From the NCBI GenBank assembly GCA_007376445.1, contig VMGF01000002.1, positions 13,673-77,672 of the forward strand: a DNA stretch of 64,000 nt, in the 5' to 3' direction. Under the pieces are notes generated by a model. That model was not told the DNA's origin. It searched no databases and saw only the letters and a list, made by a program, of their open reading frames with translations. Every line of letters begins with the position of its first letter. The stretch's first letter is position 1. Position numbers and translations under genes: made by a program. The DNA is from Parcubacteria group bacterium Gr01-1014_3. GTDB taxonomy: Bacteria > Patescibacteriota > Minisyncoccia > UBA6257 > WO2-44-18. This document shows positions 4,529-56,400 of the stretch, in pieces.

Positions 4529-4602
4529 TGGCTGGGGGGCTAGGAATCGAACCTAGATCTGCTGCTCCAAAGGCAGCCGTGTTACCATTGCACTACCCCC
4601 CA
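4529..4602 (-). tRNA. tRNA-Gln (anticodon UUG)
   Basis: The reverse complement folds as a cloverleaf. Acceptor stem UGGGGGG/CCCCCCA with U1-A72, G73 and encoded CCA. Anticodon stem GCUGC/GCAGC with loop CUUUGGA. T-arm CUAGG-UUCGAUU-CCUAG. Confidence 0.85.
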
Positions 4603-5268
4603 ATAATTACAGATGTGGTCTACCCAGGCGGAAATTTTTCTATTTAGATTCGTGCTTTTCCGCACTATGATTCTCAGTAATCCATTATAGGCGATTCCCG
4701 TATTTTTTCGACCAGTCTTTAGTTTATGCTCCTTGAAATATACTTTAATTTTTCTCTTATCGCAAGACACTGTTTTTGCCCAAAAACTCAACGCCTTTTC
4801 GATATCCGCGGTGTTATGTATATATAAAGCGAAGGCGATTTCATTTTTCGGTATTTTTATAATTGTTAACAACCAGCCTAAAAATACCTTTATCATTTTT
4901 GGATCAGAATTATTAAAATTTACTTGCTGGCTGACCAGGTGTTCCTTTGCTTTTGAGCCCTCAGCCCAATAGAGCATAATACCGGCAAGCCATAAATGAT
5001 CATTGTTGAGTTCTCGCATTTCTTGAAAAGCCTCATTTTTAATTTGATCCATAAGAGTAAGGCGTTGCTGATGTCTGGCAATCGCGCCCCTTTGTTGAGC
5101 AAGAATTTTCTTTTTAGTTAGGCGCCGATGTGTTTGTTTTGCTAATGCAACCGAATGTAGCCATGACGATAATGTTGATTTTGCAACCGGAATTTGCGCC
5201 AAAATTTCGGAGTAGGTTAGCCCCCGCCTTCTTAGGATTATTGCCTGCGTTTTTGGATCACTTTTCAT
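4582..5268 (-). CDS. hypothetical protein with N-terminal HTH; weak LAG…EG-like motif (possible homing-endonuclease-like)
   Basis: HTH-like GLTYSEILAQIPVAKSTLSSWL. Motif WLAGIMLYWAEGSK. The last ~20 nt overlap the 5' end of tRNA-Gln. Confidence 0.4.
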   Translation of the reverse strand: MKSDPKTQAIILRRRGLTYSEILAQIPVAKSTLSSWLHSVALAKQTHRRLTKKKILAQQRGAIARHQQRLTLMDQIKNEAFQEMRELNNDHLWLAGIMLYWAEGSKAKEHLVSQQVNFNNSDPKMIKVFLGWLLTIIKIPKNEIAFALYIHNTADIEKALSFWAKTVSCDKRKIKVYFKEHKLKTGRKNTGIAYNGLLRIIVRKSTNLNRKISAWVDHICNYWGVVQW

Positions 5269-29733: not shown

Positions 29734-30204
29734 TTGTCATCGTTATCGTCATTTGCATACCAGGTAGTGAAAACTCGAGTGATGCATGGTGGTCTTGCTC
29801 GAGTTTCTACTACCTGGCATAGTTTCCGTATAATGATGCGCTTTCCAAAGAATAGTCGGGAATACCACTGGACCAGCCACATCAAGGGCAAGATGGTTTT
29901 TTACCAGATCTCCGAGCAGAAAATTAAGACTATTTTAAAGTCTCCTAGCCGGAAAGAGATCGGCATCGCGCCGGAGACTTCGGCCTTTATGAAAAGAAAT
30001 GATACTCCAAAGCGAAAGCAAGAGATATGGGTGATGTTCGCGAACAATAAAAATTCCAAGCTGGAAAAAGTTAGCGCCAAAACTATTATGATCAGCGCTT
30101 GGCGGTATCCGGGCATTAGCAAGGCAGGCGATGCGATTCCTGTGCCGGAAGATATTTTGGCGGAATTAAGAGATCAGAATACTTGGCTTGGGCATCTGGA
30201 GTAA
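29734..30204 (+). CDS. hypothetical protein (start codon uncertain)
   Basis: The ORF spans hairpin R3. A downstream Met (MMRFPK… or MVFYQ…) is the more likely start. No domain recognised. Confidence 0.35.
   Translation: MSSLSSFAYQVVKTRVMHGGLARVSTTWHSFRIMMRFPKNSREYHWTSHIKGKMVFYQISEQKIKTILKSPSRKEIGIAPETSAFMKRNDTPKRKQEIWVMFANNKNSKLEKVSAKTIMISAWRYPGISKAGDAIPVPEDILAELRDQNTWLGHLE
29760..29817. repeat. conserved 20-bp-stem hairpin element, copy R3
   Basis: ccaggtagtgaaaactcgag…ctcgagtttctactacctgg. Both arm positions are substituted together relative to R1 and R2. Confidence 0.6.
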
Positions 30205-30247: not shown

Positions 30248-30273
30248 AAAACCGCTCATTTCTGAGCGGTTTG
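30248..30273. terminator. bidirectional hairpin terminator
   Basis: aaaccgctcatttctgagcggttt lies between convergent genes, with T-runs on both strands. Confidence 0.6.
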
Positions 30274-30282
30274 TGTTAATTG

Positions 30283-32298
30283 TCACAGATCCTTTTGATT
30301 ATCCTTTGTTTGTTCGTATCCCTTTTTTATAGAGTCTTCCACATCTTTCTCGAACTTTTCTGATGCTAGATAGGCCTCTCGGTCGGATTTCGACTTCTCC
30401 AGTCCGAGCTGATCAACGAGCGAGATAATATCTTTCTTCAGCCAGTCGTCGTAGGTGTTTTTCAGCAGGTCTTCCGCGACCTTCCGAGCCTGGTCGTCAT
30501 TGTTGCGACCAATCTCCTTGAACCAGCCTGCGATCCGTAGACGAGCTTCGGCGCAGTAATAATCGGCGAGATGGATGAAGCGATGCTTGTTGGGATTCTG
30601 CTTCAGCGCGTCAACCATATTCAAATCGTTCGCGTAGAAGCAGGCAGCGGTCATGGCGTAAAGTTCGGTAGCGATATTCGCCAGCCGCATAAAGAGCAGC
30701 TGCTTGTGCGGAAGCTTCGCGCGGTATTTGGCCGAAGACCAGATGACGGTTTTGGCTAGCTTACGAGCCATGCCGTCCACATAATCGAGGTGTCGCTTTA
30801 GTGTTCTCGTGTGAATCTGTGTATCGGTCTTGCGGCGGAAGGTGAGTCGGAATAGATCCCAGCCGAAGCCAAGAGCCGCGCCAAACTTCTTAAGCCACTG
30901 TCCCTTTTCCAGGAACACTTCGCCGCGCTTCTTATATTCATCGATACCTTCACGGATGATCCACTGACTCAAAATTTCAGACGAGCCTTCGAATATCCGA
31001 TTCGGGCGGAAATTCCGGTGAATCGCTTCGGTCGGAATCGGCGGTTCCCCGCGATTCTCCAGCGACTTCGCCGTTTCATACCCGCGTCCGCCGCGCATCT
31101 GCATCAGGTCGTCCACGATCTTCCAACCGCGTTCAGAGGCGTACACCTTGCAGGCAGCCGCTTCCATCCGGGCGTCGAGCTTATGGTCCACGCGATAAGT
31201 CGCGTACCAGCACATCGCTTCCATCGCGAAGGAATTAGCGAGACCGGGAGCGAGCATACCACTTCCAACTGCTTCGTGCTTTCCGATCTGCTTGCCCCAC
31301 TGACGACGTTCATTGCCCCACCACTTGCCGATCAGCAAGCACTGGCGGGAGATCGCCGCGCAGGATCCGGCCACCGCGAGACGTCCTGTATTCAGGGCCT
31401 CCATCGCAATCTTAAATCCGAGACCTTCCTTTTCACCAACGAGCTGTTCCTTGGGAACGTGCACGTTATTGTAGGTGATCTCGCTATTGTACATACCGCG
31501 AAGTCCTTCGAACTGACAACGCTCCCACGAAAGGCCTTCGCTGTTAGTCGGGATAATGAAGGCGCTGAAACAGGGCTTGTAGCCTTTTTCGTGAATTTCT
31601 TCAGGTTTATCGACGGTTTTCACGATCAGGCAGATGAGAGGGGAGACGCACTCCGAATCATTCTTCGCGCCGTTGGTCATCCACCACTTCTTTCCGGTGA
31701 TATGATAGCCGGTCACAACGCCGGATTCATCCTTTATCCGTACCGCGACTGTCTCCATATTTGCCGGATCGGATCCGGCACCGGATTCTGTGAATGAAAA
31801 TCCGGAGGGTGAGCTCGCGACCTTCGGCAAATACTTTTTCTTCTGTTCGTCCGTGCCGTAACCCTTGAGCGGCCATCCAAGACCGATAGAGTTCGAGGCC
31901 GAAAGCAGGGCCACTAAGGCGCCACAATAACTGGCAGTCAGCGACATTAGGCGCATGTAATCGCTCTGCGAAAGATTCTTGCCGCCGTATTCGACGGGGA
32001 TCTTCAGGCCAAAAAAGCCCTCTTCACAAAGCCACTCCATCGCGCGATTGGAAATACGATCGGTATCTTCGACGTTCTGCGGGTCAACTTCGGTCATCAA
32101 GAAATGACGAAGCTTCGCCAGCATCTTCTCGCCTTCTCGCTTTTCATCCGCGGTTTCGAAATTCTGACAAGAAGCAAAAAGTTCAAAGTTCGCTCTGCCG
32201 CGGAAAAGATCCGCCATAAAACCATCGTGCCGCTTCTTATCGCGCTGCTCTTCAGCGATCATTACGCCCTGTCCGAGCTTGGACATGTCCATGGCCAT
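30283..32298 (-). CDS. acyl-CoA dehydrogenase, long form with C-terminal extension
   Basis: ACAD N-, middle and C-terminal domains. Active-site region GGRGYETAK…IFEGSSEIL. ~670 aa. Confidence 0.85.
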   Translation of the reverse strand: MAMDMSKLGQGVMIAEEQRDKKRHDGFMADLFRGRANFELFASCQNFETADEKREGEKMLAKLRHFLMTEVDPQNVEDTDRISNRAMEWLCEEGFFGLKIPVEYGGKNLSQSDYMRLMSLTASYCGALVALLSASNSIGLGWPLKGYGTDEQKKKYLPKVASSPSGFSFTESGAGSDPANMETVAVRIKDESGVVTGYHITGKKWWMTNGAKNDSECVSPLICLIVKTVDKPEEIHEKGYKPCFSAFIIPTNSEGLSWERCQFEGLRGMYNSEITYNNVHVPKEQLVGEKEGLGFKIAMEALNTGRLAVAGSCAAISRQCLLIGKWWGNERRQWGKQIGKHEAVGSGMLAPGLANSFAMEAMCWYATYRVDHKLDARMEAAACKVYASERGWKIVDDLMQMRGGRGYETAKSLENRGEPPIPTEAIHRNFRPNRIFEGSSEILSQWIIREGIDEYKKRGEVFLEKGQWLKKFGAALGFGWDLFRLTFRRKTDTQIHTRTLKRHLDYVDGMARKLAKTVIWSSAKYRAKLPHKQLLFMRLANIATELYAMTAACFYANDLNMVDALKQNPNKHRFIHLADYYCAEARLRIAGWFKEIGRNNDDQARKVAEDLLKNTYDDWLKKDIISLVDQLGLEKSKSDREAYLASEKFEKDVEDSIKKGYEQTKDNQKDL

Positions 32299-32436
32299 AG
32301 GCCATCTCCTTAAAAGAATTTGTTAAATAACCGAGTAAATTGTACAACAAAAATTTAACTTTGACAATATTCCGAAAGGGTTGCTTTTATGGCCATACGG
32401 TCATAAAAGCAACCGGGGGAAATAAACATAGAGAAT

Positions 32437-32468
32437 AAAAAAATCCTGTTAGGTTTTCTAACAGGATT
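32437..32468 (-). terminator. rho-independent terminator after the hydratase/dehydrogenase gene
   Basis: On the minus strand, aatcctgttagaaaacctaacaggatt is followed by TTTTTTT. Confidence 0.65.
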
Positions 32469-32503
32469 TATTGGCCACTAGTGGCTAGTCGCTAACTACT
32501 ATT

Positions 32504-34543
32504 TTAATGTTCAGCTCGGCCGATGACTCCTCGGCGATTGGGCATCATGCCACCACCGAGGATCAGGCTCAAGTCGATCATGTCAATTGATGCAATGCCA
32601 TTTTCATATATATCCATCGCCTCAAGCCACATCTTTGACAAAATAGTTTCTCTAATCGCGACTATTTCGCCGTGTAGTGAATGTTTCTTTTTTGGCATAA
32701 TATCGAGTCGCTTTGCGAATTCATAGTTAGGCTTCACGGGCTTGCCGTTCTTCCAAATATAGAATCCCTTGCCGGTCTTCGTTCCAAGCGTGGACTTATC
32801 ATCCGCGATCTTGAAGTCTTTCAGATCAGGCAAGCTCTTCGGATAAGCTGCCTGCATCATCTTCATTACATGAGCTCCCGTATCAAAGCCAATCAGGTCG
32901 AGGGTCTTAAACGGCCCCATCATCATGCCACACATCTCGAACGCCTGATCTAACATCCAAAGATTCGGTCTACTCGGCCAATAACTGACATTAAAGATGC
33001 TTTGCATCAGATACTGCGTCATCACGCGATTCACCAGAAGGCCGACGCATTCTTTATTCAGAACCACCGGCGTTTTGCCCATCGCTCGCGTCAGATTTAA
33101 AACCTTCGCGATAATTTCAGGATTCGTCTGCTTGATGCCGGCGATCTCTACCAGGTCCATTTTGTGGGCCGGATTGAAGAAGTGCATCGCGCAGAAATTT
33201 TCCGGATGCAATAACACCGACGCGATCTCGCTGGGAAGAAGCGAAGAGGTGTTGCTAACAAGTATCGCGCCAGGGCGAGTCAATTCTTCAAGCTTCGTGA
33301 ACAGTTTATGCTTTTCCGCCATATCTTCCACAATCGCTTCGATCACTATATCGCAACGACTCAGAAGGCTATGGAAAGTCTCGCCGTAACCGACCGTCAG
33401 CCGGTTGCGTGTTTCTTCTGCCACTCCCTTAATCATTTTTCCCTTCTTAACTTCACGCGCCAGCTCGTCTTCAATGAAGCGGACTGCTTTGTGAATCGAG
33501 GGGACATAGGTGTCGTGGAGATAAACTTGCTTGTTATGAGCGGTCAGCGCGGCATAAGCGATGGTGCTACCCATCACGCCCGCGCCGATAACTCCAACGA
33601 CATCCAGAGGATAAACCTTAGCCTCAAGTGGCGTCGCTTTCCTCGCGTCCTTACGGACAAAGAAAAGATCGATCAGATTTTTCGCTTCGGGGGTATTGGC
33701 CGCCTTGACGAAAAGATCGCTTTCCTCGTTCAGTCCCCGAGACAATGACTTAGAGCTAGCGCAAACCGCTTCAAGAGCAAGTAGCGGAGCAGGGTAAACG
33801 CCCTTCGTCGCTTTCAATGTCGCTTTGCGAGCCATTGAACAAACCAGCTTCTTTCCAAAAGGTAACCGTTCTAAGAATGAGACCTTACGCTTCACCGGAA
33901 GGAAAAAGTCCAGTATAACTGTTCCGAAATCGAGCTCTTCGATTGCTAATGCTTCCCATTTATCAACCAGAGAGTCGGCTAAGCCATACTGCTTCGCTTC
34001 CTTCGCCGAAAGCTTTTTGCCTCCGACGATCACCTTGATAGCATTTTGCATGCCAACGAGGCGCGGGAGAATTTGAGTTCCGCCAAAGCCAGGAATAATT
34101 CCCAGCTGGGTTTCAGGAAGTCCCAAACGAGTCTTCGGATGATCAATCACGAACCGGTAATGGCAAGCCATAGCCAGTTCCAAACCACCGCCCAGACACT
34201 CGCCAGCAATCAATGCGATGATCGGATAAGGAGCTTGCCGGATCTTCATCAGAATCTCATGCGCGCGATTTAGGAGTTGTTTGAGGTTAGAGGGATCATT
34301 AACGATCTCGCGTATCTCATCCACGTCCATACCGGCGCAAAAACTTTCAAACTTACTGGACCGGATAACCATTACTCTGGGATGATCCGTTAAGTTCACA
34401 TCCAGAACCTGATTTAGTTCCTCAAGAGCTTGCTTAGAAAGCGTATTTTGTTTTGCCTCCGGACCGCAATCAAGAGAAAGAATCCGTAGTCCTTCGCGTA
34501 TCGAAGTTCGGTATTGCCATTTCGTCAGCTTTAAGTCTTCCAT
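32504..34543 (-). CDS. fatty-acid oxidation alpha subunit: enoyl-CoA hydratase + 3-hydroxyacyl-CoA dehydrogenase (FadB/FadJ-like)
   Basis: Crotonase fold at the N-terminus. NAD-binding VIGAGVMGSTIAYA. 3HCDH C-terminal repeats. Confidence 0.9.
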   Translation of the reverse strand: MEDLKLTKWQYRTSIREGLRILSLDCGPEAKQNTLSKQALEELNQVLDVNLTDHPRVMVIRSSKFESFCAGMDVDEIREIVNDPSNLKQLLNRAHEILMKIRQAPYPIIALIAGECLGGGLELAMACHYRFVIDHPKTRLGLPETQLGIIPGFGGTQILPRLVGMQNAIKVIVGGKKLSAKEAKQYGLADSLVDKWEALAIEELDFGTVILDFFLPVKRKVSFLERLPFGKKLVCSMARKATLKATKGVYPAPLLALEAVCASSKSLSRGLNEESDLFVKAANTPEAKNLIDLFFVRKDARKATPLEAKVYPLDVVGVIGAGVMGSTIAYAALTAHNKQVYLHDTYVPSIHKAVRFIEDELAREVKKGKMIKGVAEETRNRLTVGYGETFHSLLSRCDIVIEAIVEDMAEKHKLFTKLEELTRPGAILVSNTSSLLPSEIASVLLHPENFCAMHFFNPAHKMDLVEIAGIKQTNPEIIAKVLNLTRAMGKTPVVLNKECVGLLVNRVMTQYLMQSIFNVSYWPSRPNLWMLDQAFEMCGMMMGPFKTLDLIGFDTGAHVMKMMQAAYPKSLPDLKDFKIADDKSTLGTKTGKGFYIWKNGKPVKPNYEFAKRLDIMPKKKHSLHGEIVAIRETILSKMWLEAMDIYENGIASIDMIDLSLILGGGMMPNRRGVIGRAEH

Positions 34544-35813
34544 TACTCACCCCTTTCCAGGCAAGCGGCGACACCCTGGCCGCCGCCAACACAAAGAGTA
34601 ACCAATCCGCTCGTCGCGCCGGTAAGCTCAAGTTCCTTGGCGCAGGTAAGCACCAGGCGAGCGCCACTCGCGGAAATCGGATGGCCAAGCGCGATCGCGC
34701 CGCCGTTCCGGTTAACTTTTTCCGGCGAAAGCCGGCCGAAGTTATCCTTAACCAATTCAAATTCTTTCTGCTGGGCCAAAACGACCGCGGCAAAAGCTTC
34801 GTTGGTCTCGATCACATCAATATCGTCGAGAGTGCTCCAGTCATGGCTAAAGATTTGCTTGATAGCCTGAACCGGGCCAAGGCCCATTCTTTCGGGCACA
34901 CATCCACCAATCGAAGAAAATCTTGAGTACATAGTCGCCAGGAGCGGCCAGCCATTTTTCTTGGCCAGCTCTTCGTTAACCACCATCAGCGCGACCGCGC
35001 CGTCCGTGATCTGAGAAGAATTTCCTGGCGTAACTGTGCCGCCCTTGTGGAGAGGTCGCAGTTTACTAAGAGCCGACAGATTCTGGTCGAAACGAATTCC
35101 GTTGTCCTGATCGATACCGCGGAACGGTACGATCTCGTGCTTCAGACGGCCGGAAAGCGTTGCCGCCTTCGCGCGCCGCTGAGATTCGAGAGCGAACAAG
35201 TCCTGCTCTTCGCGAGAAATCTTGTACTCCTCGGCAATCTGATCCGCGATCTCGTCCATACCCAGTTTACAAACCGGATCGGTCAGACCGATCTTGATCG
35301 ACCACTCCGGCTTATGCGGCATCATTTTCATTTTTGTCCACTCCTTCATTAAAGAAGGAAGGCGGCGCCACATCGGCGCCTTCTTGCGCGAAACCTCGTA
35401 AAGTTTCGCGAATTGGGCTCGCTGTTGGCGATTGTAGACCGCGACGTAGTCCGACATCACTTCTGATGCCACCACTAGGATGCATTTGTACAAACCAAGC
35501 TCAACATTCTTTACCGCGTCGAGCACGGCGTGAAGCCCGCTCCCGCAGTTAATGTTAACCGTCCAGGCCGGAATTCTTGGGTCGAGTCCTGCCTTGAGCA
35601 AGATCACTCGCGCCAGATTCGAGCCGTCCGGGTGAAGCACCTGATTGCCAATATTGGCGCCAACCACGCAATCACAAGATTCCTTCAGCTTCGGATAACG
35701 CTTAAAAAGCTCGCCAACCGGCGTCAAAGCCATCTCGCTCGCGGAAAGATCAGGAATTGTTCCCGCCTTCAAAAACGGCGTCCGCACTCCATCAACGATC
35801 ACTGCCTTGTTCA
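34543..35813 (-). CDS. acetyl-CoA C-acyltransferase (thiolase, FadA-like)
   Basis: GTG start at complement 35811-35813 after AAGGAG (MNKAVIVDGVRTPF). Active-site Cys context NINCGSGL. C-terminal GGGQGVA. TAATG overlap with the next gene. Confidence 0.85.
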
Positions 35814-35935
35814 CAAGGCGTCTCCTTAAATAGGTTTTTAAAATGTTAAAAAACCAGATAAATAGTACTAAAAATAACCCCTTTTGGCAAACCGGGAAAA
35901 TAGTGATATATTGTACTCGGTTCTTTAAGAGGTGA

Positions 35936-36427
35936 ATGATGACCGACCCAAAGCTTCGTGAGCTTGAGAAGAAGGTTAATGAACGCAAGAAGCTCGTTGA
36001 ACGGATCATGGTTTTTGTGGAAAAAGTCCTTGTAAAGCATGGCAAGGAGACATACCGCTATGAGGGGTCTTGCCATACCAACACGAAATACGAATTAAAA
36101 GCAGGGAAGTTTTTACTAAAGGGTAGTTTTGGCCAAACCCAAATGGGAGGTAATAATGTTTACATTCTTTATAAAGATAAAGAGGTTTTCCAGGTTTACT
36201 ATCAAGCCAACCTGGATGAATGTCGGGTTGATGTTTTTGAAAATGGAGCTTGGTTACCAGCCTTCCAGAAGTTGATGCATAATTTCAAAGAGGTGATTGC
36301 GAGAGTTAATAAGAAACAGAAAGACAGCGCCAGTAAATTAGAAAATAAATCGTTGATTGAAGAAAAGCGCAAGCAACTTCTAATCAAAGCTAAGCGACTT
36401 GGCTTGCCTACCGACGGGCAAGCCTGA
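35936..36427 (+). CDS. hypothetical protein
   Basis: RBS GAGGTG. Own terminator at 36427-36452. No domain recognised. Confidence 0.4.
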   Translation: MMTDPKLRELEKKVNERKKLVERIMVFVEKVLVKHGKETYRYEGSCHTNTKYELKAGKFLLKGSFGQTQMGGNNVYILYKDKEVFQVYYQANLDECRVDVFENGAWLPAFQKLMHNFKEVIARVNKKQKDSASKLENKSLIEEKRKQLLIKAKRLGLPTDGQA

Positions 36428-36499
36428 CCGCGGAATAATCCGCGGTTTTTTTATTTCAAAAATAAAACCGCCTACAAAAAGTAGGCGGTTAATTTTTTT
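36427..36499. terminator. pair of hairpin terminators (gaccgcggaataatccgcggtttttt and aaccgcctacaaaaagtaggcggtt) between convergent genes
   Basis: Two GC stems, each followed by T-runs; the second has T-runs on both strands. Confidence 0.65.
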
Positions 36500-36833
36500 A
36501 TTCCTTAATTCCGAAAAGTGTTTTAAATTCTTCTTCCGTTAAACCAAGCTTCTGCAGAATTTCTTTCTTCTTCCTTTTTATTTCAGCCGCTTTCTGCTCG
36601 GCGACAAGCTTCGCCTTGGCATCATCAGCCTCCGCTTTTTCCTTGGTCTTCTTATTTTCCTTATATTCGTCCCACCACTTCTTCAACCCCGGAGAAAACA
36701 GCTTTTCAAGTTTAAGTAATTCCAATTGTTCACAGAGAGGCGCTAGCAGATCATGATATTCCTTAGACAACTCCCGACACGCTTGGCCGACCGCGCGCCG
36801 CTCATTGCTTTCCCGACTAACACCGAAAGCCAT
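36498..36833 (-). CDS. hypothetical protein, Lys/Glu-rich C-terminal half
   Basis: Preceded by a gccgaaaggc hairpin plus AAGGAG leader. No domain recognised. Confidence 0.4.
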   Translation of the reverse strand: MAFGVSRESNERRAVGQACRELSKEYHDLLAPLCEQLELLKLEKLFSPGLKKWWDEYKENKKTKEKAEADDAKAKLVAEQKAAEIKRKKKEILQKLGLTEEEFKTLFGIKE

Positions 36834-36861
36834 ACCTGCTCCTTTCTGCCTTTCGGCTCAG

Positions 36862-37613
36862 TTAAGAACTAAACTCCGATTTGATGTAGTTTTCGAGAGT
36901 GGTCAAATCAAAGCTCGCGATTAATCTACATTCCTTACCATCCCAGCCGATAACTAAGGGGTCTATATTTAGACGACCCTCTTCCCAGGCGGCTTCTGTG
37001 ACGACAAAAACTTTATGCACATGCCATTTAGTATGTCCATTCGTTGTACACTCAGTAAAATCAAGTTGTTTAAATTCTTCTCTCGCAGTAAGAATTTTTT
37101 CACGAATTTCATATGGAATAAGCCCCTTGAATTCCATTGCCAAGTTCAATCCTCTACTTTTAGAGGGTACTATTTGAACTAAACCATCCAACATAGCCTC
37201 GCGGATAGCGTATGGCAGTCCCATGGGATATCTGATATAACTACTATTCTCTATTTGGCATACTGCTTCATAGTCATGTTCGGCGAATGGATCAAAAATC
37301 GCCAAACTTGGGAATCCCTTTTTATTTCTCCACTTAAAAACATGCGTGGAAAGCTTAGTGGGATACTTGAGTGAAATCTTTTGTTTAATTAGCTTCGGCA
37401 GGCGATTATCTATGGATTCAATACTCTTTCTGATTTTTGTTTTAGCGTGGAATTCAATTGCTAATAGCTGGTCGAGCTTCCTCTCTAAAAATTGCTTTTC
37501 TTTTATCAACTTATCGATTTCATCAATAACTTCTTCTAACTTCTCTTTCTGACTAACTTCTTTTGAGCAATACTTCAATGCCTCTTTAATAGGATTAGTA
37601 GTAATTTCGGTCA
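36862..37613 (-). CDS. hypothetical protein (~250 aa), N-terminal coiled coil
   Basis: Start trimmed to ATG at complement 37611-37613 after a gccgaaaggcagaagggagc leader (MTEITTNPIKE…). Confidence 0.4.
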
Positions 37614-37917
37614 TCGCTAGCTCCCTTCTGCCTTTCGGCATGTAAATGAACTTGCAATAAAATACCATTTTATATGGATTACGTCAATTCAAAGAAAACG
37701 CCCATCTCCACAAGGGGACAGGCGTTTTCTAAGAATAAAATATTCACAACGAGAAATTATCTGTCCCTAATGGGTTGGATTTAGCACCTTACGGTAAAGC
37801 AGGTTGCTGGAGCTTCATAGGGCCAAGACCCTCGGCTCACTCTTGATAATATTTCGTTGTCAAAGTTCAAGTGCTTATTACAACCGCTATCCTATCAGAT
37901 TGGTTTCCTTAGGTCAA

Positions 37918-37945
37918 TTGACAAACTTAGTTTATATGATATAAT
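37918..37945 (+). promoter_or_regulatory. near-consensus sigma70-type promoter (TTGACA-N16-TATAAT)
   Basis: ttgacaaacttagtttatatgatataat lies 45 nt upstream of the ATG at 37990. Confidence 0.5.
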
Positions 37946-37989
37946 ACACGGAGTTCAAAAAAAGAATCCAAAACACAGGAGGTGACGCG

Positions 37990-38358
37990 ATGGAATTATT
38001 CGAGAGACTTTGGGAAGAAATGCAGGAAGCATTTCGCCGTCGTAATCTCTTTGCGGCGATCAAGGTTTTGAGGTTTTCCACGCCAATAACGATGGGGTTA
38101 AAGGAAACCAAGAATTATGTCGAGCGCTATTGGAATATGGATGGTGGACTAGAGGCCATGAAAGCCGACCTCATGATCCAGCTCGGCATTGAGTCTCCTG
38201 CCACGGAAGAGAAGAAAAGTGTTGAGGAAATCGCTGCCATACTTCAGGGCATAAAGGTCGTACAAGATGAGAACTTCGCTCTGACAGTAAAGAAGGAAGT
38301 TTCCTGGGATCAGATGAACGAGTTTTTTGCCAAAGCAGCTCGAGAATTGGGATTCTAG
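37990..38358 (+). CDS. hypothetical protein with ribosomal L7/L12 C-terminal-domain-like motif
   Basis: AAIKVLRFSTPITMGLKETKNYVE matches the L7/L12 CTD signature (vIKvvReiTGLGLKEAKDLVd). RBS AGGAGGTG. Confidence 0.4.
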   Translation: MELFERLWEEMQEAFRRRNLFAAIKVLRFSTPITMGLKETKNYVERYWNMDGGLEAMKADLMIQLGIESPATEEKKSVEEIAAILQGIKVVQDENFALTVKKEVSWDQMNEFFAKAARELGF

Positions 38359-43199: not shown

Positions 43200-44297
43200 A
43201 TGATCACGTGCAGAGAGGCGCTGAGTACGCCTGGCTTCACTCACTGGTTGGTGAGAAACTTCGCGGACCACGCATCTCTGGATTACAGTAATCCAGCGGA
43301 TGAGGAGAGGATCGTGAAGTGGTTCCTGGCGCGCGTTGCCTGCAGAGAAGCAGCTCCGCTGATGCGCCAGATGTACCGCGAAATGTTCCTCGGCGACATT
43401 GGGCTTTGCCTGTCGAATTCCATCCTGGGATCGGTCGAGAAGTATCTCGATCGTCTGGCGATCGAGAATCCGGAAGGCGCGGCCTACTACTGTGAGCGGG
43501 CCAAGCGCTGGCATGAGATCCCGCGCGAGATCCAGAGGCTGACGGAAGAGTACGCGCAGGCAGGCGGTGAAGGCCGCCGCGACCAGGCGAGTCTCGACCT
43601 CGCTTCCACTCAGCGCGACTGCGAACTTCGCAAGCGCGTGGGTCGCTTCCTTCCCCTCTGGCGTTCTGCCGAAGAGAAAGAGGTGATGCAGTACCCGTTC
43701 GGCGCACTGGAGAGTTCGATCCAGACGTTCAAGGTTGAGTTGAACAGGTTCGCCCAAATCGAACAGCAGATCCCGGCTCTTCAAAAGGAGCGTTGGGATC
43801 TCAAGCGTGAGTTCCTCACGGTCATGGATATCGTAAAGGAACTGCTTGTTGAGATTCGCATGGAGGTGAGCTCCAAGCTCATTGAAATGGTGAGCAGGGT
43901 TCGGGTCAAGAAGGACTGGCGGGATCGCTCGGTTGAGGAACTCGAAGTGGCGCAGAGCTATCTCGAGAAGATGCAGGCGGCGGGAGCGGAGTTCGGATTG
44001 GATTACCTGGCCGATATCGACAATGTGGTGGGTTTCCAGAAAAATCTGGATGACGCCATCTCCCGGAGCCTGTATGAAGATCTGAAGAAGCGGATGGTCG
44101 CGCAAAACAAGCAGCCGGCCTCCGTTGCTCTTCCGGCCGTCGAGAACCTGATCAATCAGGCGCTCGCCCGCACTCAGTTGGGATCCCTCCGGGATTACCA
44201 AGCTCGCGAGGCCGTGGTCAAAACGCTGCAGGATCTCCACAGAGATGGAGCCATCAGCGGAGCTCACAAGCTCTTGTTTCGACCCATGGCCCGATAG
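43200..44297 (+). CDS. hypothetical all-alpha protein, GC-anomalous (~58 percent GC)
   Basis: Strong RBS AAGGAGG 6 nt upstream. Intrinsic terminator at 44341-44378. The antisense 413-aa ORF is rejected. Confidence 0.5.
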   Translation: MITCREALSTPGFTHWLVRNFADHASLDYSNPADEERIVKWFLARVACREAAPLMRQMYREMFLGDIGLCLSNSILGSVEKYLDRLAIENPEGAAYYCERAKRWHEIPREIQRLTEEYAQAGGEGRRDQASLDLASTQRDCELRKRVGRFLPLWRSAEEKEVMQYPFGALESSIQTFKVELNRFAQIEQQIPALQKERWDLKREFLTVMDIVKELLVEIRMEVSSKLIEMVSRVRVKKDWRDRSVEELEVAQSYLEKMQAAGAEFGLDYLADIDNVVGFQKNLDDAISRSLYEDLKKRMVAQNKQPASVALPAVENLINQALARTQLGSLRDYQAREAVVKTLQDLHRDGAISGAHKLLFRPMAR

Positions 44298-46960: not shown

Positions 46961-47023
46961 CCAGGAAGTGAAAATTCGACTGTTTTGGACTCATTTCCGG
47001 ATGGTCGAATTTCTACTTCCTGG
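46961..47023. repeat. conserved 20-bp-stem hairpin element, copy R2
   Basis: ccaggaagtgaaaattcgac…gtcgaatttctacttcctgg. Both arms and the cttgccagg/cctggcttg flanks are near-identical to R1. Confidence 0.6.
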
Positions 47024-47090
47024 CTTGAATCCCGATGTAAACCAGAGTAAGATTATCTTTATCCGTTCCTTGAAAATAAAGGAGAAACAT

Positions 47091-48884
47091 ATGAAGGAAG
47101 AGAAAATCATCTCTTTCGGCGAGTATTTGGATCGCGTTAAAAAGGATCCGCAAATCGTTACGACGGCGCATCAGCTAATCTATAACGCCATTATGAAGAA
47201 GGGTGTCGAGAAGGTGTTCGGAGAGCTTTACGGCATAGATTCGGTGATTGAAGAGGTCGTGGACTACTTCGGCAAGGCTAGTTTGGGTGGCGGACGATCG
47301 AAACGATTCTTGTTCTTGCTTGGCCCTCCGAGTTCTGGAAAGAGCACGATCGCGCGAGCGATTGCCTGGGCTATTGATGATGAGCCAATCTATTGCATTG
47401 AAGGCTGTCCAATCCGTGATCAGCCTATTTATCTTTTGAAGCGGCGTGATCGTTTGGCGCTGGCCAAAGAACTTGGCATCTATCTCCCAGAAGGGGATAT
47501 CTGCCCGGTTTGCCGGAAGCGGCTAAAAACCGAGTTCGACTATGATTACACGAAGTTCAAGGTTAAGATCGATAAAATTTCTGTCCGATCGTTCAATGGT
47601 TTTGCCTCGGTAGATCCCACGGATCCGATGTCATTTGATAAAGCGCGGCTGATCGGTTCGGTAACTCTTGGCGAAAAAGAAGGTAATCCGGACAACTTTG
47701 AGTTGGACGGCGCGATTCTTCGCGGTAATCGTGGCGCGCTTGAATTAGTGGAAATCTTAAAGAATCTGACTGAAGCTCTGTACGTTCTTATCGAAGCAAC
47801 CCAGAGTAAGACTATCGAATCTCCCGCGGGCCGCACTGAAAAGATCTATGTCGATCTCGCGATCATCAGCCATTCCAATGAAGCGGAGTGGGTAAAGTTT
47901 TATTCCGATAAAAAGAACGAAGCCCTGCTGGATCGCATGCACGTGATCAATGTGCCGCATAATATCCGGCTCGACGATCAGATTAGAGTTCTGAAGGGTA
48001 TGAGTATCGCGACACCACGCCAGAGCCTTAATTATCATGTTAATCCGCTTAGTCTTAAGTTGGTCGCGGCCTTTACGGTCATGACGCGCTTACAGATTGG
48101 CGGTGAAACTGATGCTGATGAAGCGTTAGCGCGGATGCTGGCCTACAACGGCTTGATTGCCGAAGGGTCGGATGCAACACCCGCGACGCTGATGAAGCAA
48201 TATCCTCGCGATGGCTGGCAAGGCATTTCTAACCGGGATGGCGCGGAAATCTTGGAAATGTCCCTGTCTATGAAACAGTCGGATAAAGAGATGTGCATTG
48301 ATCCGATCTCTGTCCTGGATGCAATTGATAAGTTCATCTCACAAGACACGAATAAGAAATTTTCAGTTAAAGAAAAGGCTAATTGGCCGCCTCTTGCTAC
48401 CATCCTCAAAAAGGACTTTGCGCGGGAAGCCGCCAAGCAATTCTGCACGATCGCTGAAGAATCTACCCAGCTTTGCACCGATACTTTTGAAAAGTATCTG
48501 GAAGCTATCCGTAATTTGCTGAATCGCGTTGAGCTGAATGATCAGCAAAAAGACCTGGTAACTTATGTCGAGAACGGCTGGCGCGATAAAAGTGACGACG
48601 AAAAAAACGATAAACGCTCTGATATCAGTCGCCATATCCACTCATTCACGGAAGCCTCCGAGGATATGAAAACCGGTGTTTATAACTATATCAACAGCAC
48701 CGTCATTATTGATGTCATCAGCCGGCTCCTCTTGAGCGAGCAGGAGCTGACCAGTTTAGATAAACAGAACGACTGGCTCAATCTGGATCAGTTCGTAAAA
48801 GAAAAGTTCGAAAAGCTGAACTATTGTCCGAAGTGCCTGCGCCGAGTAGCGCATTGGCTCAAGGATAATCAGAAGTTTCCTTAA
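47091..48884 (+). CDS. prkA: PrkA-family serine protein kinase (AAA ATPase + kinase-like)
   Basis: Start trimmed to ATG at 47091 after AAGGAG. P-loop LLGPPSSGKST. C-terminal PrkA_C region. Followed by yeaH- and spoVR-like genes. Confidence 0.8.
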   Translation: MKEEKIISFGEYLDRVKKDPQIVTTAHQLIYNAIMKKGVEKVFGELYGIDSVIEEVVDYFGKASLGGGRSKRFLFLLGPPSSGKSTIARAIAWAIDDEPIYCIEGCPIRDQPIYLLKRRDRLALAKELGIYLPEGDICPVCRKRLKTEFDYDYTKFKVKIDKISVRSFNGFASVDPTDPMSFDKARLIGSVTLGEKEGNPDNFELDGAILRGNRGALELVEILKNLTEALYVLIEATQSKTIESPAGRTEKIYVDLAIISHSNEAEWVKFYSDKKNEALLDRMHVINVPHNIRLDDQIRVLKGMSIATPRQSLNYHVNPLSLKLVAAFTVMTRLQIGGETDADEALARMLAYNGLIAEGSDATPATLMKQYPRDGWQGISNRDGAEILEMSLSMKQSDKEMCIDPISVLDAIDKFISQDTNKKFSVKEKANWPPLATILKKDFAREAAKQFCTIAEESTQLCTDTFEKYLEAIRNLLNRVELNDQQKDLVTYVENGWRDKSDDEKNDKRSDISRHIHSFTEASEDMKTGVYNYINSTVIIDVISRLLLSEQELTSLDKQNDWLNLDQFVKEKFEKLNYCPKCLRRVAHWLKDNQKFP

Positions 48885-48963
48885 TTATATAACCCCGATT
48901 TACATCGGGGTTATTTTTGTTAAGATTATGGCAGTCTTTTCATAACTAAATAAGAGGTGCTAA

Positions 48964-50067
48964 ATGACTCTCAAAGACAGCCGTAACGACAAAGTTACGC
49001 CGCAAACAAGCTGGGATATTCATCGCCATCAGTCCAAATTAAGACGCGCGCTACGTGAACAGATCGAGGAGATCATTCTAAGCCAACCGGTGATAACTGG
49101 TAATCCCGATAAAGTCATTCAGATACCAGTCCGATCGTTACAAGAATTTACTTTTCAATTCAAAGACGGCGGGGGAGCGGGTAAGTTCGTGGAAGGCATT
49201 CCCAAAAAAGCCGGCACTAAGGCTGGTCAGGAAATGATCGAAGCGGACATTCGTCTACAACTCGCGATCGAACTGATGATGGAAGATCTGGAGATCCTCG
49301 ACTTATTCCGCGCTATTGAAGAGGGAGAGCGGGTCCCTAGAAGCCGCACACGGCCATGGGGAAAGAAACATTATGGTAACCGGGCTCGTCTGATGAAGCG
49401 GGAAACCGTAAAAAATAAATTGGCCAGAGTACGAGCGACCAAGTCTCAATCCAAGGCATTCAAAGCGGAAGATAGCCGTTATCGGCACTTCAAAGAAACA
49501 CCAGACGGCGATTACCGCGCGGTGATATTCTATATTATGGATATTTCGGGCTCCATGGATGGCCGAAAACTCTATCTTTGCCGGGCGCTTAATTACTGCA
49601 TTAACCAGTATCTCAGGCAGATATATAGCGAAGTGCAGGCGCGATTTATCGTCCATGAAGCGAAGGCCGAAGAAAAGACTGAGGAAGAATTTTTCCGGAC
49701 AAAATCGAATGGCGGCACGCAACTATCCACCGGGACCGAAGAAGCCCTAAAAATCATCGATCGGGATTATTCTAATGGGGATTGGGACATTTATGCCTGG
49801 CATGCCACGGATGGCGATAATTCTTCGCAAGATAACCCCATGTTCGCGAAAGAACTTGGTAAACTATCAGAAAAAGCCCGCGCTATCATGCTTTGTGAAA
49901 CTGATACATCGATCGGATCGGCTAGTCAGTCGGATGCCCTGAAAGAACTGCGCGAAAAGGTTAACAACTTTTTTGTGTTCTTATTGGACCGGAAAGAAGG
50001 CATCCGCGACACCTTAAAAGGTATGCTGGAAGTCCTTAAAGAAAGGAGCGGGGTCAATGAAAGATAA
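48964..50067 (+). CDS. YeaH/YhbH (DUF444, vWA-like) protein
   Basis: FYIMDISGSMDG metal-ion-site-like motif. Conserved position between prkA and spoVR. Confidence 0.75.
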   Translation: MTLKDSRNDKVTPQTSWDIHRHQSKLRRALREQIEEIILSQPVITGNPDKVIQIPVRSLQEFTFQFKDGGGAGKFVEGIPKKAGTKAGQEMIEADIRLQLAIELMMEDLEILDLFRAIEEGERVPRSRTRPWGKKHYGNRARLMKRETVKNKLARVRATKSQSKAFKAEDSRYRHFKETPDGDYRAVIFYIMDISGSMDGRKLYLCRALNYCINQYLRQIYSEVQARFIVHEAKAEEKTEEEFFRTKSNGGTQLSTGTEEALKIIDRDYSNGDWDIYAWHATDGDNSSQDNPMFAKELGKLSEKARAIMLCETDTSIGSASQSDALKELREKVNNFFVFLLDRKEGIRDTLKGMLEVLKERSGVNER

Positions 50068-51358
50068 TGAATTCAAGAAGCTCGATAAATGGATCATTAA
50101 GATCGAAGATCGGGCCAGGGAATTCGGGCTTAAATTCCGCGCCCAAAACTTCACGGTATGCAGCGCGGAAAAAATGTTGGAGAAAGAAGCCCAGCTCGGC
50201 GGCTACGATCTTTATTCGCATTGGAGCTTTGGTAAACGATTTGCGAAGAGCAAGACGCTTTACACGTATAAGTATCACTTCTTACCATATGAAATGGTCA
50301 TTAATACTGATCCTTGCGATGCCTGCTTGTTAGACAGCAATCCGCTGACATACAACCTGCTGGTTGCCGCGCATGTCTATGGGCACAACGATTTTTTCTG
50401 CAATAATCTGATGTTTAAGGATACGGAGCCAAAATACATTCAGATGTATCTCCGTGAAGGCGGCCGAAGGATCGAGGAATATATCCGGAACCCCAGGATC
50501 GGGCTCGAGAACGTGGAGAGCTTGCTGGACGCGGCTCACGCAGTTTGGATGATTAATGACTCGGCCGGAAGGAGTTTCTTGGACTTCGTGCTTCGTGATT
50601 TTGAGCATCTTAGCGATTATGAACGGGATATTTTAAAAACCGTTGATACCTGGTCCAGGCATGTCCGCGGGAATATGAAAACCAAAGTCATGAACGAAGG
50701 GTGGGCGACTTACTGGCACTGGAAGATCGTCGAAAGCTTTTCCAGCGAGATCAAGAGCGAATTCGGTCCGTCAGCCTATGTTGATGAGATGCTGGAGATG
50801 CATAGAGGGGTCGTCAGGCTTCCCAATAATCTCAAAAGCCTTAATCCATACCGGGTTGGGCTTCTCACTTGGGAAAAGATCTGGAATGATCTTATGTGGA
50901 ATCAAAAATTTTCGCCCGTGGATTTTTTCAACATCCGGGCCGGAAAAACGGATGTTGAGTTCATCTCGGAACATTTCCGCGGTGAACCACTGATCTACGA
51001 GAAATTCTTAAAACCGATCCTCAAGGCTAACGGAGTTAGTCAAAAGATTGATGTTGCCGGCGAAACAGAAAAATACCGTAAAATGATTATTGGATCCTGC
51101 GGAGAAATTCTGATCCCGAGATTCAATTTCTACATTGATAAAACACCTTCCGGAAGATCACTCATGCTGATTCATGTTTTTGATGGCAGAGAGTTGGAAA
51201 GGGGAGTAATACTCCATAATACCGTTAAATTGATCCATCGTATTTGGCCAGGGGAAATTATTCTCAAAACCGTTGGATCCGAAAAAGGCGGTAAAAAGAA
51301 CATCGCGCTGGTCTGGCGCAATGGAGAATTCCAGAAAATTGAAATGCCGGCGAGTTAG
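50057..51358 (+). CDS. SpoVR/YcgB-family protein
   Basis: Size and position as the third gene of the prkA-yeaH-ycgB trio. Confidence 0.7.
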   Translation: MKDNEFKKLDKWIIKIEDRAREFGLKFRAQNFTVCSAEKMLEKEAQLGGYDLYSHWSFGKRFAKSKTLYTYKYHFLPYEMVINTDPCDACLLDSNPLTYNLLVAAHVYGHNDFFCNNLMFKDTEPKYIQMYLREGGRRIEEYIRNPRIGLENVESLLDAAHAVWMINDSAGRSFLDFVLRDFEHLSDYERDILKTVDTWSRHVRGNMKTKVMNEGWATYWHWKIVESFSSEIKSEFGPSAYVDEMLEMHRGVVRLPNNLKSLNPYRVGLLTWEKIWNDLMWNQKFSPVDFFNIRAGKTDVEFISEHFRGEPLIYEKFLKPILKANGVSQKIDVAGETEKYRKMIIGSCGEILIPRFNFYIDKTPSGRSLMLIHVFDGRELERGVILHNTVKLIHRIWPGEIILKTVGSEKGGKKNIALVWRNGEFQKIEMPAS

Positions 51359-55890: not shown

Positions 55891-56400
55891 TTATTTGATC
55901 GTGATCTTATTTCTCTTCTCTTTTAATTGTTTCAAGGCTTCCATCGTCGCCATCGCGTTGGTCAGCTTATTCGGCGTACGGCCAAGACACTTCGCCGTCG
56001 CGTCTTTAATACCGGCCAACAACAAGACAGCTCGGACAGCGCCACCAGCCTTCAAACCATGACCGACGATCGCTGGCTTAATGACAACCTCCGCGGCGCT
56101 GAATTTCGCGTATACCTGATGAGGAATAGTGCGTCCTTTCAACTGCAGTGAAATGATGTTTTTCATGGCGTTATTTTTCGCTTTAGCCACGGACATAGCC
56201 ACATCGGCCCCTTTGCCGATACCCACGCCAACCCTCCCCTTCTCGTCACCAAGAATGATTGTTACCCGAAAACGCATACGCTTACCGCCGGCGACAACGC
56301 GAGTAACACGGCGAAGATCCAGTACCTTCTCCTTGAATCCGGTATCCTCTTTTTTAAACCGGCTAAACTTATTAAATTTTCTATCTCTCTGTTGTTCCAT
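55891..56400 (-). CDS. rpsE: 30S ribosomal protein S5
   Basis: VVAGGKRMRFRVTIILGDEKGRVGVGIGKG. rplO follows directly, with no rpmD. Confidence 0.9.
   Translation of the reverse strand: MEQQRDRKFNKFSRFKKEDTGFKEKVLDLRRVTRVVAGGKRMRFRVTIILGDEKGRVGVGIGKGADVAMSVAKAKNNAMKNIISLQLKGRTIPHQVYAKFSAAEVVIKPAIVGHGLKAGGAVRAVLLLAGIKDATAKCLGRTPNKLTNAMATMEALKQLKEKRNKITIK

Follow-up and report, generated by a model that had tools for sequence, protein, structure and literature searches.

A long-chain-type beta-oxidation gene cassette held at one site in a small clade of Parcubacteria

The window considered here is a stretch of 64,000 nucleotides of contig VMGF01000002.1 (assembly GCA_007376445.1) from Parcubacteria group bacterium Gr01-1014_3, a member of the Candidate Phyla Radiation (CPR). 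Within it, a block of three intact genes on the minus strand encodes enzymes of fatty-acid beta-oxidation: a thiolase (thl), a fused enoyl-CoA hydratase/3-hydroxyacyl-CoA dehydrogenase that resembles FadJ, and a long acyl-CoA dehydrogenase (ACAD). The features of this cassette and its immediate surroundings are listed in Table 1. The three identities were proposed in the original prediction and are in agreement with the Pfam domains of the proteins. Two of the three genes are already correctly annotated in GenBank.

Table 1. Features of the beta-oxidation block, in positions of the 64-kb window
Feature	Position	Strand	Details
Small conserved gene, convergent with the ACAD gene	29734..30204	+	same position in L084 and L087-L090
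Terminator-like hairpin 3' of the ACAD gene	30249..30272	-	10-pair stem, then T-rich tail
VLCAD/ACAD9-like acyl-CoA dehydrogenase, 671 aa, with extra C-terminal helical domain	30283..32298	-	Pfam domains
ACAD promoter-like TTGTCA-N17-TACAAT (32367-32339) and downstream motif TTACTCGGTTATTTAACA	32321..32367	-	10/12 match
Palindrome between the fadJ terminator and the ACAD promoter, 16-nt arms, 4-nt loop	32379..32414	-	inverted repeat I8, 94% complementary
Intrinsic terminator 3' of fadJ	32441..32469	-	12-pair stem and T run
FadJ-like enoyl-CoA hydratase/3-hydroxyacyl-CoA dehydrogenase, 679 aa	32504..34543	-	Pfam ECH_1, 3HCDH_N, 3HCDH
TAATG stop/start overlap, thiolase/fadJ	34541..34545	-	thiolase TAA 34545-34543; fadJ ATG 34543-34541
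Thiolase, 423 aa, long FadI/HADHB-like type with central insertion	34543..35814	-	Pfam Thiolase_N and Thiolase_C
Promoter-like TTGCCA-N17-TACTAT 5' of the thiolase gene	35862..35890	-	9/12 match

The thiolase gene begins with a GTG codon at 35814, one base beyond the end at 35813 that had first been given for it, and has an AGGAG sequence ahead of it at 35826-35822. The protein matches Thiolase_N (E 1.5e-47) and Thiolase_C (E 1.1e-35), and scores 341.7 against the NCBIfam model TIGR01930 (acetyl-CoA C-acyltransferase), above the cutoff of 240.55. Alignment with the FadI model PRK08963 and with PRK08170 runs in a single full-length stretch, as it does with the beta subunit of the mitochondrial trifunctional protein (6dv2_A), while the FadA models align in two stretches that are split at the central insertion. 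The Cys, His and Cys motifs (NINCGSG, GHP and CVGGGQG) align with those of solved thiolases and are intact. The score against PRK08963 is 214 bits, below its FadI equivalog cutoff of 560. The long form, with its insertion aligned in one piece, is a likeness to FadI and HADHB which points to a role as beta subunit in a putative trifunctional enzyme.

The putative alpha subunit of that enzyme, judged in the same way from its sequence, is the FadJ-like protein. The crotonase domain (ECH_1, E 1.4e-34) precedes the 3-hydroxyacyl-CoA dehydrogenase domains (3HCDH_N, E 8.5e-50, and 3HCDH, E 4.3e-15), which is the order found in the alpha subunits of Escherichia coli FadJ/FadI (YfcX/YfcY) and mitochondrial HADHA/HADHB. 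The closest solved relative is the alpha subunit of a fatty acid oxidation complex (PDB 6ysv and 8bnu, E 1.4e-89), which we take to be the anaerobic FadJ of E. coli. Both catalytic glutamates of the crotonase domain are present, in the segments GGGLELAMACH and GLPETQLG that align with 6ysv, and in the dehydrogenase domain the GxGxxG (GAGVMG) and HFFNP...LVEI motifs align with FadJ. The top NCBIfam model is likewise FadJ (PRK11154), although the score of 422.4 bits is less than half of the equivalog cutoff of 869; FadB (PRK11730) gives 393 bits against a cutoff of 870. The protein is also shorter, at 679 aa, than the solved FadJ chains of 710-728 aa. It probably works like FadJ, but is not an equivalog of it by the NCBI threshold.

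The thiolase gene comes first in the cassette, as it does in E. coli fadIJ, and adjoins the FadJ-like gene. The thiolase stop codon and the fadJ start codon share one A in the sequence TAATG, which was read directly in the DNA and bears out the overlap and operon structure first described for this pair. The overlap is identical in L095, the nearest relative for which DNA is available, and adjacency of the two genes is conserved both there and in five further loci (L084 and L087-L090), which have 68-155 nt between thl and fadJ. The putative complex differs from FadJ/FadI also in its host, a CPR bacterium without a known respiratory chain.

The ACAD gene starts at an ATG at 32298 with AGGAG ahead of it. 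Its product has the three Pfam ACAD domains followed by PF21343, the C-terminal domain of ACAD9/ACADV (33.2 bits against a cutoff of 27.8), and this four-domain structure is shared with human VLCAD (ACADVL) and ACAD9. Human ACAD9 aligns over nearly its full length (E 1.6e-49) and VLCAD over residues 23-590, with E-values for the two ranging from 1e-44 to 1e-49. An AlphaFold2 (AF2) model built on 26 relatives has a pLDDT of 88.6, and its best PDB matches by Foldseek are VLCAD and ACAD9, with TM-scores of 0.85-0.89 over approximately 610 columns. Glu437, presumably the catalytic base, lies in the FEG(T/S)xEI-type motif RIFEGSSEIL, is invariant across the 26 relatives, and aligns with IFEGTNEIL of ACAD9. 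In pairing such a dehydrogenase gene with a trifunctional enzyme the cassette resembles mitochondrial long-chain oxidation. The likeness has limits: identity with the human proteins is only 23-26%, the window protein is extended at the N-terminus and ends in a charged tail of approximately 40 residues, and no electron-transfer flavoprotein (ETF) that could partner it was found in the window or in nine related loci. By analogy with VLCAD the dehydrogenase may be associated with the membrane; a hydrophobic-moment scan of segment 466-487 gave no standout signal. We likewise infer the chain-length preference, complex formation, direction of flux and acyl-CoA source of the cassette enzymes.

Two transcription units are suggested by the intergenic sequences. 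The promoter-like sequence 5' of the ACAD gene is the best match in the region, but the number of promoter-like sites there, at 9, is not above the 6.7 +/- 3.0 found in shuffled sequence. Since the site count alone proves nothing, the case for this promoter rests on its conservation: where the window has it, L094 has TTGCCA-N17-TAAAAT and L095 has TTGCCA-N17-TAATAT. The terminator 3' of fadJ is nearly identical in L095, although the adjoining coding sequence has a synonymous divergence (dS) of about 1.5. Both elements had been recognised in the original prediction, and both hold.

Each promoter in the window is directly followed by a motif that the two have in common, TTATCTGGTTTTTTAACA (35861-35844) in the case of the thiolase gene. 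The shared pattern TTAYYYGGTTWTTTAACA occurs right after both -10 boxes and at no other site in the 64 kb with two mismatches allowed; as the pattern was derived from these two promoters, only the absence of further sites is informative. Relatives (L084, L087-L090, L092, L094 and L095) have TAnAAT-N5-CGGTT 35-45 nt ahead of the start codons of thl, of fadJ where it is separate, and of the ACAD gene. The fuller form of this element is TAnAAT-N5-CGGTT-N1-3-TT, with window sites at 32321-32338 (-) and 35844-35861 (-), and the shared element is also present at 35907-35926 (+), ahead of a divergent gene at 35936. This element may be an operator that these genes have in common, or a leader that has been conserved. 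A palindrome, CTATYC-N4-GRATAG, is found in L092 (917-932), L093 (425-440), L094 (117-132 and 138-153) and L095 (1644-1659), and in none of the other 92 loci of the 96 scanned. It sits only upstream of beta-oxidation promoters, L092, L094 and L095 being the nearest relatives. The window palindrome differs from it in sequence but holds the equivalent place, and may be an operator or an RNA hairpin. Together, the shared promoter motif and the palindromes suggest a small regulon. No riboswitch or leader known to Rfam was found in front of the three cassette genes.

In five long contigs of other projects (L084, L087, L088, L089 and L090), the cassette stands at the site that it has in the window. 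The CPR identity of such relatives was judged by gene context and a few named matches. The common order is a type IV secretion system (T4SS) coupling protein, YchF, thl, fadJ, ACAD, a small convergent gene, a PMT_2 glycosyltransferase, an FtsQ-like protein, alanine racemase (Alr), SerRS, AsnRS/AspRS, GreA and GT2, with the PMT_2 gene missing from that position in L084. Six flanking housekeeping proteins of the five relatives are 51-79% identical to those of the window. Without SerRS, for which the identity is only 51-53% in four relatives, the range is 62-79%. For the cassette the values are 55-57% for the thiolase, 44-46% for FadJ and 45-49% for the ACAD, with the last falling to 32% in L090. 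The pairwise patterns are broadly congruent: L084 and L089 are closest to each other in both housekeeping and cassette proteins, L088 and L090 form a close pair in housekeeping proteins and in the thiolase, and the window is the outlier of the six genomes in both classes of gene.

Wider searches place each protein in a group of its own. Identities of the ACAD relatives run from 94, 63 and 55% down to about 40%, after which come Verrucomicrobiota, Gemmatimonadota and other phyla at 37-40%. FadJ relatives are 79% and then 51-41% identical, with bit scores declining from 462 to 415 before a step to 384; thiolase relatives are 86-45% identical, and their scores drop from 371 to 311. In neighbour-joining trees each forms a discrete clade, with bootstrap values of 100% for the ACAD (n=39), 83.5% for FadJ (n=25) and 100% for the thiolase (n=43). 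The named members of these clades are all 'Patescibacteria group bacterium' or 'Parcubacteria group bacterium', and those checked by context are also Patescibacteria. L095, from Hainich groundwater, is 86% identical in thl, 79% in fadJ and 78% in the N-terminus of the ACAD. The ratio of nonsynonymous to synonymous divergence (dN/dS) is 0.07 for the ACAD gene (against L094), 0.10 for fadJ and 0.12 for thl (both against L095). These results make the cassette an accessory trait that a small Parcubacteria clade has inherited vertically, fixed at one site and under purifying selection.

It is probable, at roughly 0.7, that the block is a working core for the beta-oxidation of long-chain fatty-acyl-CoA, arranged in two transcription units and vertically inherited in this clade. 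A VLCAD-like flavoprotein, probably membrane-associated, would make 2-enoyl-CoA, and a trifunctional enzyme of the FadJ/FadI type would carry out the remaining steps, with hydratase and NAD-dependent dehydrogenase in the alpha subunit and thiolase in the beta subunit, releasing acetyl-CoA. The thl-fadJ unit would be translationally coupled via TAATG and the ACAD gene transcribed separately, with joint control of both units suggested by the common motif after their promoters. The most likely use would be the conversion of fatty acids from host or environmental lipids to acetyl-CoA and reducing equivalents, in an organism unable to make fatty acids.

Several observations weigh against this reading. 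The gene set had been described as complete, which stands for the four core reactions but not for their partners, as no acyl-CoA ligase, ETF or ETF dehydrogenase was found among the larger open reading frames (ORFs) of the 64-kb window, nor in the Pfam tables of nine related loci up to a distance of 10 kb from the cassette. To our knowledge CPR bacteria are generally without a respiratory chain, which leaves the re-oxidation of the ACAD flavin to be explained. All three proteins score below the NCBIfam equivalog cutoffs, so that the family models do not fix the substrate range. The cassette has diverged further than the housekeeping proteins beside it, which fits accessory genes but would also fit some exchange within the clade. 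Between the window ACAD gene (30283-32298) and that of L094 (243-2255) dS is 0.44, where neighbouring genes have values of 1.2-1.8; this could result from codon constraint or from recent exchange of the segment between lineages. The ACAD of L090 (12174-14093, 'Parcubacteria group bacterium Gr01-1014_19') is just 32-36% identical to the other five. Lastly, the three genes are not an obligatory unit, because L083, L091 and L092 keep the ACAD without an adjacent thl-fadJ pair and the L090 ACAD is divergent.

There has been turnover of the cassette within the clade. The L090 ACAD has no match to PF21343 and, by its sequence, appears to have been replaced in situ. In L092, where the ACAD is 63% identical, a DUF5701 gene rather than fadJ lies upstream; in L083 the ACAD gene is alone; and in L082, a Patescibacteria single-cell genome, a 50% identical ACAD is accompanied by a different thiolase and a domain-swapped FadB. 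In L091 (10001-13804), from a CPR-like genome, a 43% identical ACAD gene is immediately upstream of genes for the small and large subunits of a NiFe hydrogenase, and is also near NAD kinase, NAPRTase and NAD synthase genes. A gene for an AAA_28 (P-loop kinase)/weakly CYTH-like protein is just upstream of thl in L087-L090 and L095, and in the window its place is taken up by four small genes (35936-38358) that are unrelated to it and have no known function. Replacement of the window ACAD from within the CPR was also considered, as it falls outside the subclade of the four syntenic relatives. This was not adopted, the support for the subclade of the window ACAD being only 68.5% and the window being an outlier in housekeeping genes too.

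The origin of the cassette is a separate matter. The ancestor of the clade may have received thl-fadJ-ACAD en bloc from a non-CPR bacterium, for example of the PVC group, with vertical descent since. This is compatible with a working, vertically inherited long-chain core, and we regard it as evenly balanced. Beta-oxidation is reported to be absent from most CPR (PMC9166423, PMC11809585), with none in freshwater CPR (PMC9166423), in line with the statement of the original prediction that it is generally missing from such genomes, and the cassette is confined to a small clade. The same gene order and strand are seen in at least nine Verrucomicrobiota and at least three Omnitrophota loci, L024 having a 2-kb gap before the ACAD gene, and each CPR clade is on a long stem, apart from all other sequences. 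The Verrucomicrobiota/Omnitrophota cassettes (L007, L008, L031, L040, L041, L044, L050, L064, L078, L080 and L081) also share the C-terminal domain of the ACAD, but are only 39-43% (thiolase), 31-34% (FadB) and 35-39% (ACAD) identical to the window proteins and fall outside the CPR clades in the trees. Among the matches listed from a profile search of genome contigs with the ACAD clade alignment there were only relatives of 35-41% identity from other phyla, which served as outgroup. The trees single out neither a sister group nor a donor, and the midpoint-rooted ACAD tree places the CPR clade sister to all 80 named non-CPR sequences together. Furthermore, the top non-CPR matches of FadJ are labelled Proteobacteria rather than Verrucomicrobia. 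Transfer in either direction, or common descent with loss elsewhere in the CPR, would fit these data.

A full beta-oxidation set has been reported before in a Parcubacterium, 'Candidatus Parcunitrobacter nitroensis' (Castelle et al. 2017, PMC5220378). There, as here, the sequences are divergent from those outside the CPR, and its authors argued against recent acquisition (PMC5220378). The systems differ in composition, with ACADs of glutaryl-CoA and short/branched-chain types in 'Ca. Parcunitrobacter' and a VLCAD-like ACAD in the window, and with the hydratase and dehydrogenase mostly encoded by separate genes in the former (PMC5220378) and fused in a FadJ-like protein in the latter. 'Ca. Parcunitrobacter' also has an ETF and FeS oxidoreductase encoded together and a full electron transport chain (PMC5220378), whereas there is no ETF near the window cassette. 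The window cassette is therefore a different, long-chain-type solution.

A more elaborate form of the long-chain reading, which we put forward tentatively and consider unlikely as a whole, is that a mitochondrion-like long-chain pair has long been kept without a conventional ETF or respiratory chain. Its bearer would feed on or tailor the fatty acids of host membranes and pass electrons to an unconventional acceptor, and the promoter motif and palindromes would mark a lipid-responsive regulon. The acceptor could be O2 itself, or a hydrogenase-linked route could take the electrons, of which the adjacency of ACAD and NiFe hydrogenase genes in L091 is a hint.

Somewhat less likely still is that the enzymes serve mainly in lipid editing or in the reductive direction, shortening or elongating scavenged acyl chains or providing an electron sink through enoyl-CoA, and not in the harvest of energy. 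Fatty-acid synthesis is missing from CPR bacteria, which are thought to recycle host lipids (Probst et al. 2020, cited in PMC12455944), and for another Parcubacterium Castelle et al. discussed operation in either direction (PMC5220378). The lack of an ETF or respiratory partner nearby would suit such a role, as would the occurrence of the ACAD homologue alone in some relatives and beside NiFe hydrogenase and NAD-salvage genes in L091. That adjacency is a single case, however, and enoyl-CoA reduction by an ACAD physiologically needs a bifurcating ETF, of which none was found. In addition, we know of no characterised FadI/FadJ-type trifunctional enzyme or VLCAD-type dehydrogenase that is not degradative, and degradation remains the preferred reading for the window.

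Base composition is one ground for suspecting a newly inserted foreign catabolic island, with GC as the unameliorated signature of the donor. At 0.511, the GC content of the block is above that of every other 5.5-kb segment of the window (mean 0.462, sd 0.014). Only the ACAD and thiolase genes contribute to the excess, with values of 0.531 (z 2.1) and 0.547 (z 2.6), and not from the FadJ-like gene at 0.486 (z 0.65), measured against 63 other window genes (mean 0.465, sd 0.032); the block as a whole is richer in GC than its flanks, as had been claimed, but one of its three genes does not stand out. When the share of GC that amino-acid content predicts is separated from the synonymous residual, the excess in the ACAD gene is mostly synonymous (+4.9 points, z 2.4), that in the thiolase gene is half and half, and FadJ has none. 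Such synonymous excess (z 2.0-2.4 in the two genes), the rarity of beta-oxidation in the CPR (PMC9166423) and the recurrence of the gene order in Verrucomicrobiota and Omnitrophota are what speaks for recent transfer.

Comparison between genomes changes the meaning of this offset. Flank GC ranges from 0.458 to 0.531 in the five relatives, and in all six genomes the cassette is 5.0-7.0 points above its flanks, with a correlation between cassette and flank GC of r=0.994. The offset is no scar of transfer, because a recent foreign insert would keep the GC of its donor rather than shift with each host. With the pooled codons of the other genes as reference, the ACAD (z -0.7) and thiolase (z +0.2) genes have a typical synonymous codon likelihood, so that their codon choice is not foreign, while the likelihood is mildly low for FadJ (z -2.4); several other window genes are far more atypical than those of the cassette. 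The nearest non-CPR proteins are just 35-46% identical. Neither direct repeats nor tRNA or mobility genes were found at the borders of the block, the sole tRNA of the window being at 4529-4602, and of the marks of a recent island only the raised GC is seen, which is common to all relatives. Because orthologues occupy the same site in relatives whose housekeeping proteins have diverged to approximately 51-79% identity, the GC offset tracks the host, and no repeats, tRNA or mobility genes flank the block, recent acquisition is rejected as very improbable, and with it assembly error. Of the lateral acquisition proposed in the original prediction, an ancient event is what may survive. Orthologues in close relatives and GC indistinguishable from the rest of the genome had both been named there as findings that would speak against it; the orthologues are present, while the GC remains distinct.

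A further gene merits mention for its composition. The 365-aa hypothetical protein encoded at 43200-44297 (+) has the highest GC of the window (0.579, with a GC of 0.724 at third codon positions and a synonymous residual z of 3.6), matches no Pfam or NCBIfam model, and is overlapped by a long antisense ORF. On composition it is the best candidate for foreign DNA in the window.

That a non-CPR cassette was wrongly joined to a CPR contig in binning or assembly, for which nothing speaks except the unusual gene content and raised GC, is practically excluded: CPR genes are on both sides of the cassette within a contig of 242,713 bp, a separate Logan assembly of SRR8863434 (L001) has an identical 8.6 kb spanning the cassette and both junctions, and the same junctions are found in five more assemblies from different projects. 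All 10 window proteins looked up are deposited under 'Parcubacteria group bacterium Gr01-1014_3' on this contig, and the remaining window content includes genes for cell-wall synthesis, tRNA synthetases, ScpAB, the T4SS coupling protein and ribosomal proteins. The L30 gene is absent, as first noted from the sequence, since S5 (55891-56400) and L15 (55491-55886) are separated by only 4 bp. Together with the source taxonomy this identifies the host as a member of the CPR/Patescibacteria. The cassette, which had been offered as a possible argument against that assignment, is none, because it is embedded in Parcubacteria housekeeping synteny in six independent assemblies, in a metagenome-assembled genome named as Parcubacteria and missing L30.

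The enzymes themselves are ordinary; their presence in a CPR bacterium is unusual. According to descriptions of the group, CPR bacteria neither make nor oxidise fatty acids, and their means of obtaining and handling membrane lipids are still an open question. A conserved and selected long-chain beta-oxidation cassette in one Parcubacteria clade gives a testable handle on lipid use by these episymbionts, as it offers three enzymes for expression along with a candidate regulatory motif. It also illustrates that raised GC in a block of genes is not in itself a sign of recent transfer, since here the offset goes stably with the genes in all six genomes.

The small gene that is convergent with the ACAD gene has no Pfam or NCBIfam match. 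It is 53-62% identical in L084 and L087-L090 and 94% identical in L094, and its true start is probably internal, given that the proteins of the relatives are approximately 110-127 aa. In the comparison of the window with L094, dS is 0.58 for this gene, 1.19 for the PMT_2 gene and 1.79 for the FtsQ-like gene.

On the other side of the cassette, a SAM-I riboswitch (RF00162) is present at 37754-37852 (-), with a score of 69.7 bits (gathering score 44.4, E 6e-15) and a terminator-like hairpin. It is directly 5' of a gene for an uncharacterised protein of 250 aa (ORF 36862-37614/37668, minus strand), which has a GC content of 0.378 and codon usage that is among the most atypical in the window. The family of this protein has approximately 278 representative sequences and no Pfam model. 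Its AF2 model (pLDDT 87.5) consists of a coiled-coil hairpin and an alpha/beta domain, with PDB matches for the hairpin only. One homologue is found on an IMG/VR viral contig (L097), and a scan of nine loci, L097 among them, gave no riboswitch. One of the four small genes next to the thiolase gene, at 36498-36833 (-), resembles, by eye, the first ORF of L095, and the leaders of both minus-strand genes carry the 20-nt repeat GCTCCYTTCTGCCTTTCGGC, at 36838-36857 and 37620-37639.

Elsewhere in the window, the tRNA-Gln gene, on the minus strand, overlaps the listed start of a 228-aa ORF at 4582-5268 (-) that has the most atypical codon usage of the window (z -5.2) and a GC content of 0.389. A trio of genes for PrkA, DUF444 and SpoVR, presumably the yeaG-yeaH-ycgB stress module, is present at 46968-51358 (+) in this reduced genome.

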